Assembly: GCF_003334385.1 (NCBI RefSeq)
Contig: NZ_QOWN01000114.1
Source: Escherichia coli
GTDB taxonomy: Bacteria > Pseudomonadota > Gammaproteobacteria > Enterobacterales > Enterobacteriaceae
Direction: 5' to 3' (one strand)
Length of the DNA: 1,409 bases
Shown one piece after another: positions 1,282 through 1,409 of the stretch; within the stretch, counting starts at the first letter, position 1, and each line of letters begins with the position of its first letter. A program made the position numbers and the translations under genes. The notes below the pieces were generated by a model. It searched no databases. It saw only the letters and a list, made by a program, of their open reading frames with translations, and was not told where the DNA came from.

Positions 1282-1409
1282 ATGACAGTCAGAATATCGG
1301 GCGTGCTGAAGGACGGCACCGGGAAGCCGGTGCCGGGATGCACCATAGAGCTGAAAGCGCGACGCACCACAGAGACAGTGATAGTCACCACGGTGGCGCA
1401 GGGGCAGCC
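1282..1409 (+). CDS. stf: Side tail fibre protein, lambda Stf-like, N-terminal tail-attachment region; 3'-partial (first 42 codons, runs off the window)
   Basis: Seen in sequence: ATG at 1282 preceded by GGGAGA at 1271-1276 (5-nt spacing); open frame to the window end, translating MTVRISGVLKDGTGKPVPGCTIELKARRTTETVIVTTVAQGQ. From memory: lambda Stf begins approximately MAVKISGVLKDGTGKPVQNCTIQLKA..., a near-identical N-terminus. Not in the supplied ORF track, presumably because it is truncated by the window edge. Confidence 0.8.
   Translation, partial: MTVRISGVLKDGTGKPVPGCTIELKARRTTETVIVTTVAQGQ

Follow-up and report, generated by a model that had tools for sequence, protein, structure and literature searches.

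The best described counterpart of the gene considered here is the side tail fibre protein Stf of Ur-lambda, residues 1-94 of which have been resolved by cryo-EM as a six-strand antiparallel sheet and a helix (Yu et al., 2025; PMC12617516). Twelve copies, belonging to four trimers, form a collar where the last gpV ring meets the gpM ring; the beta4-beta5 loop contacts E63 of gpV and R80, K2 and W6 of gpM, and flexible linkers of approximately 10 residues join the collar domains to the shaft (PMC12617516). A twelve-copy tail ring that anchors lateral fibres is also built by T5 p132 and DT57C LtfC (PMC12617516), although this collar is a separate protein, whereas in the lambda family and in the gene described below it is the N-terminal domain of the fibre itself. 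The stf gene is intact in Ur-lambda, but occurs as orf-401 and orf-314 in lambda PaPa.

A second point of reference is provided by the EPclC collagen-like prophage proteins, among them ECED1_2081 of strain ED1a with a length of 520 aa and collagen runs of 118 and 117 as well as ORF-401 of prophage P-EibA in ECOR-9 (Ghosh et al., 2012; PMC3368898). With these systems we compare a stretch of 1,409 nt of Escherichia coli DNA (contig NZ_QOWN01000114.1), called the window throughout, which contains the end of a J gene and the beginning of an stf gene. The stf start as such is an already known feature: RefSeq names it, the EPclC architecture dates from 2012 and the anchor role from cryo-EM work of 2025. 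The remaining interest is modest and lies in an orphan tip of J and in a structurally conserved putative terminator, which is also a mosaic joint, before stf.

Results

On the plus strand, the ATG at 1282-1284 opens a reading frame that continues to the end of the window (1282-1409), comprising 42 codons plus 2 nt with the translation MTVRISGVLKDGTGKPVPGCTIELKARRTTETVIVTTVAQGQ. As read from the sequence, the start codon is preceded with a spacing of 6 nt by the Shine-Dalgarno motif GGGAG (1271-1275), around which relatives keep ...TATGGGAGAAATCTATG unchanged. Used alone as the query, the 42-aa fragment retrieved ten PHROG families, of which eight bear tail or tail fibre annotations. Every alignment began with the first profile position or close to it, the tail-fibre families being matched at profile positions 1-40 (E 2.6e-20 to 1.7e-08). 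Among 177,635 PDB sequences, the sole match was the collar chain of Ur-lambda Stf (9E7M/9MGH, a chain of 94 residues titled 'Tail fiber protein'; E 1.5e-13). Membership in PF08400 thus extends from residue 1, for the fragment by the PHROG and PDB matches and for the full protein in a 99.9% identical relative, and the window covers roughly the first 40-45% of this PF08400/gpStfN collar domain. RefSeq labels the identical 5' end in relatives 'prophage tail fiber N-terminal domain-containing protein'.

Judged by these matches, the homology of the 42-residue fragment to lambda Stf is firm and far beyond chance. The earlier note, which read the DNA by eye, had considered this N-terminus nearly identical to that of lambda Stf; the homology holds, but near-identity does not, as 28 of the 42 residues (67%) and 87 of 128 nucleotides are identical to lambda orf-401 (J02459), with the resemblance amounting to 15 of 17 over residues 1-17 and 23 of 28 over residues 1-28. 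Differences between the window and lambda stf fall on the first, second and third codon positions in the numbers 8, 10 and 23, codon changes being synonymous in 16 cases and non-synonymous in 14, a bias which identifies the frame starting at 1282 as the one under purifying selection. An early stop codon or a lack of resemblance to Stf-family proteins would have spoken against the reading of the earlier note, but no stop occurs within a few dozen codons and Stf-family models are matched.

The gene lies on the same strand as J, the stop codon of which ends at 1097, 184 nt upstream of the stf start at 1282, and this position in the tail module fits the lambda Stf family. The order of J followed by stf, or of J, lom and stf, is equally found in the relatives, lambda, Fels-1, PhiR11_1 and Stx phage 1717. 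We consider it highly probable (roughly 0.88) that positions 1282-1409 represent the 5' end of a side tail fibre gene of the stf family in an Eib-carrying type of lambdoid E. coli prophage.

All statements on the sequence beyond position 1409 are based on relatives, each with at least 2 differences from the window over its 1409 positions. The closest match, at 99.9%, is a prophage of E. coli 2018-166 and of two other strains, with two mismatches at positions 78 and 479. At least 80% of the window is carried by 29 of 5,426 complete E. coli genomes, and the whole window is present at 96-99% DNA identity in the phages PhiR12_1 to PhiR12_5 (GenBank PV340549-PV340554), which agree with the window in J tip, spacer and stf 5' end, the T-run before stf numbering 7 in the phages and 8 in the window. 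The host given in their records is E. coli K-12 MG1655 or E. coli C, so that the module belongs to propagated phages; a literature search by name and accession found no publication describing them. Compared with the window, one G is missing from the G-run at 401-407 in PhiR12_2 and one C from the C-run at 474-478 in PhiR12_5, and J is split into two annotated open reading frames in either phage. Either sequencing errors in homopolymers or true frameshifts may account for these one-base deletions; in the window, J is in frame.

In the prophage of 2018-166, stf is intact and codes for 520 aa. Residues 1-134 match PF08400 from end to end (model 1-134 of 134, E 2.4e-42), residues 136-253 form a collagen G-x-y run (136-192 and 194-253) with one GDPGGPPG interruption, residues 260-301 one Phage_fiber_2 repeat and residues 312-428 a second collagen G-x-y run, followed by a tip of approximately 90 residues without a Pfam match; PF06820 was not matched by Pfam anywhere in the protein. 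Over residues 1-91 the protein matches 9E7M (E 4.8e-29), and identity to lambda Stf is about 53-59% over the first 97-131 residues, with 53% over 131 aa and approximately 58% to the solved chain. The gene that follows encodes a DUF4376 protein of 193 aa which matches PHROG families annotated as 'tail fiber protein', but is not similar to lambda Tfa (orf-194) by BLASTP (best E 0.068 over 12 residues).

The architecture of this protein is the EPclC architecture published in 2012. The 99.9% identical relative displays the succession PfN - Col - Pf2 - Col - non-PF06820 C-terminus with the G-x-P-G-G-P-x-G interruption in the first run, and agrees with EPclC in total length (520 aa), in the collagen runs (approximately 118 and 117), in domain order, in having no PCoil and in the Eib-type gene downstream. 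In all essentials the two agree; what the 2012 paper leaves undescribed is the J tip, the presence of three alternative tips on a single collar and the terminator before stf. Extrapolated from the 99.9% identical prophage, the fibre beyond the window would consist of a collagen-like triple-helical shaft with one Phage_fiber_2 repeat and a small tip of about 90 residues, with the DUF4376 protein probably assisting the folding of the tip or forming part of it.

Downstream of the DUF4376 gene in 2018-166 (locus 14238-15563) resides a gene for a YadA-type trimeric autotransporter related to EibD (E 3e-21), which assigns the prophage to the P-Eib group. All E. coli relatives that share the J tip of the window have this EibD-like gene; JE86-ST05 has it too, and LZSFT34 lacks it. 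The order J - stf - DUF4376 - YadA/Eib-like is seen in five E. coli relatives with the same J tip; JE86-ST05 displays stf - DUF4376 - YadA/Eib-like too, there combined with another J and an inserted lom.

The stf region was compared in ten relatives, six of which are E. coli prophages containing the window in full length (95-99.9% identity). Intact J (1176 aa), stf (473-520 aa) and DUF4376 genes are present in five of these six. In the sixth, of strain 99RCEF, stf is a truncated pseudogene, a stub of 342 nt behind the same J tip. JE86-ST05 and LZSFT34, which have only the stf 5' end in common with the window and other sequence upstream, carry an intact stf, as do the PhiR12 records examined, so that stf is uninterrupted with 473-520 aa in nine of the ten. 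Shaft, tip and partner gene, all located outside the window, follow the collar in nine of ten relatives, though not in 99RCEF. This comparison covers, on relatives, the downstream check recommended by the earlier note, which had asked for the integrity of stf and the nature of the following gene, and the partner turned out to be DUF4376 rather than a Tfa-like protein.

The strain 99RCEF carries exactly what the source genome might have as well, namely a decayed remnant of stf of which only the conserved 5' end is left, with a particle adsorbing by the J fibre alone as in laboratory lambda. Loss of stf function by a frameshift is indeed documented for laboratory lambda (PMC12617516), and the partner gene is interrupted by an insertion sequence in PhiR12_1 and PhiR12_2. 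Nevertheless, we regard such decay in the source genome as unlikely, since stf is uninterrupted in nine of ten relatives, since 2018-166, one of the three closest genomes at 99.9%, has an intact stf and since the 42 stf codons of the window are undamaged.

The insertion in the two phages, both with K-12 MG1655 as the listed host, is an IS21-type element with a transposase and an ATP-binding helper that splits the DUF4376 gene (PhiR12_2 locus 10858-14025; PhiR12_1 locus 10859-14026). This loss of side-fibre function parallels laboratory lambda. Together with the truncated stf of 99RCEF, it marks the side fibres as dispensable and as a part that is lost at times.

Where stf is retained, its distal part is exchangeable. 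Residues 1-134 of Stf are 99-100% identical across all nine intact proteins, and behind this common domain stand three unrelated C-terminal tips, ending in ..GLFQRAY, ..IGIDNGM and ..VTIKTE. The switch point is located inside the second collagen run (residues ~370-430 of the 2018-166-type stf), with in-frame triplet indels elsewhere in the collagen, and the N-terminal half of the DUF4376 protein differs according to the tip, the protein measuring 191-193 aa with the first tip and 223 aa with the other two. The surmise of the earlier note that the far end of stf may also be mosaic is thereby borne out; by the same token, the tip of the window's own source is not predictable.

The ..GLFQRAY tip recurs at 98.9% identity in the 62-kb phages PhiR12_3 and PhiR5_2 (PV340552.1 and PV340546.1), which are of a different size class. 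This recurrence suggests tip exchange between phage types through the collagen repeats.

The spacer between J and stf comprises 184 nt and does not contain lom. Folding of the RNA of positions 1095-1284 gave three hairpins on the plus strand, the first of which (1096-1128) overlaps the J stop codon and has no T-run after it, and the second of which (1176-1199), GGGTGCC...GGCACCC, is followed by TTTAA. The third resembles an intrinsic terminator in that a hairpin at 1232-1262, with 13 pairs, one bulge and a GUAA loop, is followed by eight T residues up to 1268, the whole element stopping 13 nt before the stf ATG. The segment 1232-1268 folds with -21 to -23 kcal/mol (z -4.2; none of 200 shuffled sequences folded as well) and scores positive in a terminator scan. 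A promoter scan of the window produced two weak sites, a number that chance alone would yield, neither of which lies before stf, and Rfam returned nothing for the whole window at E<=1. That the spacer is a deleted lom locus was considered and rejected, as 1098-1234 has no similarity to the lom flanks of lambda or JE86-ST05 in alignment.

A GC-rich hairpin followed by T6-T8 at 12-16 nt before the stf ATG is present in all seven lambdoid loci compared (the window, lambda, Stx phage 1717, JE86-ST05, LZSFT34, Fels-1 and PhiR11_1), with either lom or J as the upstream gene and with six different stem sequences; in lambda the equivalent hairpin maps to 4613-4640 of the retrieved locus. Three non-lambdoid carriers of the domain, PY54, Serratia Opt-155 and ChristophMerian, do not have this layout. 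The pre-stf hairpin is thus conserved by structure and not by sequence. Fels-1, PhiR11_1 and a Serratia phage likewise have stf immediately after J, and in JE86-ST05 the same stf 5' end stands behind lom. Similarity of the window to other E. coli prophages with a different J and/or lom starts at about 1235, 1255, 1263 or 1281, that is within the segment from hairpin to start codon, and as these starts include positions inside the hairpin, the putative terminator coincides with a mosaic joint. We read the element as a functional terminator that also marks the joint between modules, the terminator function being predicted from fold and layout.

Tandem terminators of lambda, t'J, were mapped in this area in the 1980s. 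With a terminator directly before it, stf would most likely be expressed only from the Q-antiterminated late transcript reading through from J, in analogy to general lambda biology.

In pathogenic E. coli, collagen-like proteins of prophages have been considered with respect to virulence (PMC3368898), and the adjoining Eib/YadA-like gene codes for a lysogenic-conversion adhesin, so that a collagen-like surface or adhesion factor expressed by the lysogen, a 'moron' in which PF08400 does not serve as an anchor, can be envisaged. This proposal is very improbable, as no promoter-like site exists between the terminator and the stf start codon, a strong terminator is placed directly upstream, the Stf N-terminus has no signal peptide-like stretch but begins with the collar domain at residue 1, and both its location and its partner gene correspond to lambda stf-tfa. 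Translation of another frame instead, from ATG 1269 on the plus strand or as the 58-codon open reading frame 1215-1391 on the minus strand, can practically be dismissed, because both are open across the region but neither has a family match and the 1269 frame stops after 55 codons in a near-identical relative, whereas the 1282 frame reaches E 1e-13 to 1e-20 to Stf proteins with third-position-biased substitutions. A gene overlapping in another frame was rejected likewise. The other open reading frames of the region are short and without matches.

The window contains the last 364 codons of J, which enters from upstream in frame 3. Its distal lambda-like part (3-764, plus strand) is recognized by alignment to lambda J, by PDB and by NCBIfam, with 45% identity to residues 795-1041 of lambda J, matches to the PDB lambda J chains at E 1e-66 and a match to NF049904 (lambda_TipJ; E 5.4e-100, profile positions 814-1128 of 1163) of 335.5 bits, a score obtained with the last 364 residues only against a whole-protein cut-off of 1950 bits. 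Full-length relatives are named 'phage attachment tail tip protein J' by RefSeq.

The C-terminal tip, the presumed receptor-binding domain (765-1097, plus strand, including the TGA stop codon at 1095-1097), is different. The last approximately 110 residues, from about nt 765, have no alignment in lambda J, corresponding to the part beyond lambda residue ~1041, and a C-terminal domain of the LamB-binding type was not recovered in the J of the window; for the last 160 residues no PDB match was obtained at E<=1. The entry motif D-x-x-P-F-D-R is common to the J of the window, lambda J and 'A8 gpJ' (PDB 9WCA/9WCB, for which a literature search gave no associated paper), and the lambda alignment stops just after it. 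The view of the earlier note that the J gene has a non-lambda tip is hence confirmed.

The last 135 residues of J, searched with tblastn against 50,697 phage records, were found only in the five PhiR12 phages; among 5,426 complete E. coli genomes, 29 have the tip. A word-indexed protein search with the tip retrieved only three fragments of the same protein, and an exhaustive search of 1.84 billion representative proteins retrieved self-matches only, plus three weak matches (E 7.5e-06 to 9e-04) to unrelated repetitive proteins that were judged spurious. An AlphaFold2 single-sequence model of the tip (window 600-1094) was unusable, with a mean pLDDT of 32.7.

Discussion

Lambda Stf and the gene in the window are alike in that the collar domain begins at residue 1, the gene follows J and a hairpin, a T-run and a ribosome binding site precede the ATG. 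They differ in that lambda has lom between J and stf, which the window does not, and in that the lambda shaft is an alanine/serine-rich coiled coil, whereas the shaft of the 2018-166 relative is collagen-like, with a tip and a DUF4376 partner unrelated to the OmpC-binding tip and Tfa of lambda. The N-terminus was proposed by the earlier note to attach the fibre to the tail, a proposal in line with the match of the relative to 9E7M, the end-to-end match to PF08400 and the collar role seen by cryo-EM (PMC12617516). Given the match to 9E7M, the same fold and the same collar role can naturally be assumed for the N-terminal domain, and four side-fibre trimers would ring the junction of tube and gpM through it, with the rest of the fibre held on flexible linkers. 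As judged from the order of strands, the beta4-beta5 contact loop is probably encoded just beyond position 1409.

The tail on which the collar would assemble is related to that of lambda only in part. Lambda gpM and its homologue in the closest prophage share 45% identity, with K2 and R80 kept and W6 replaced by L in the latter, but the major tail protein of this prophage has no significant similarity to lambda gpV by BLASTP. As the tube protein is not detectably similar, the gpV contact of Ur-lambda cannot be assumed for the phage of the window, and the notion of a conserved lambda-like tail chassis applies loosely to gpM and fails for the tube protein. Apart from this loose term and the overstated identity to lambda Stf, the reading made from the sequence by eye is supported by the analysis.

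That reading also held that the virion probably carries two independent host-recognition devices, and the co-occurrence of intact J, stf and DUF4376 genes in five of the six whole-window relatives agrees with it. A virion of this type would expose a central J fibre, with a tip unrelated to the LamB-binding tip of lambda, as one adsorption device and four side fibres with exchangeable tip cassettes as the second, both presumably binding receptors. As such, the locus illustrates neatly how host range can be built from modules, in a few E. coli genomes one invariant collar-plus-shaft being combined with three tips and with different J/lom modules, and the joints between modules lying at the terminator hairpin on one side and in the collagen repeats on the other. 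This arrangement is relevant to engineering the host range of lambdoid phages and to predicting the host range of prophages from sequence.

Variation in the end of J is well known, and the tip found here is one of its rare forms. A more far-reaching proposal, which we put forward tentatively and with somewhat less than even confidence in all of its parts together, is that the tip (nt 765-1094), travelling with its private 137-nt spacer, constitutes a rare receptor-binding module restricted to E. coli and probably directed at a receptor other than LamB, and that the pre-stf terminator, kept in structure with or without lom, may render the side fibres dependent on Q antitermination and act as the recombination joint between J/lom and stf.

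Two observations concern the closest prophage itself. In 2018-166 the portal gene is annotated as frameshifted (NZ_CP075632.1 181223-183807), and despite intact tail-fibre genes the prophage may consequently be defective. The same prophage carries a full-length ompC porin gene, inserted between its gpM-like and gpL-like tail genes (NZ_CP075632.1 190583-191746). OmpC is bound by the side fibres of Ur-lambda, and a porin encoded by the phage beside its tail genes could be of relevance for the masking or replacement of a receptor.
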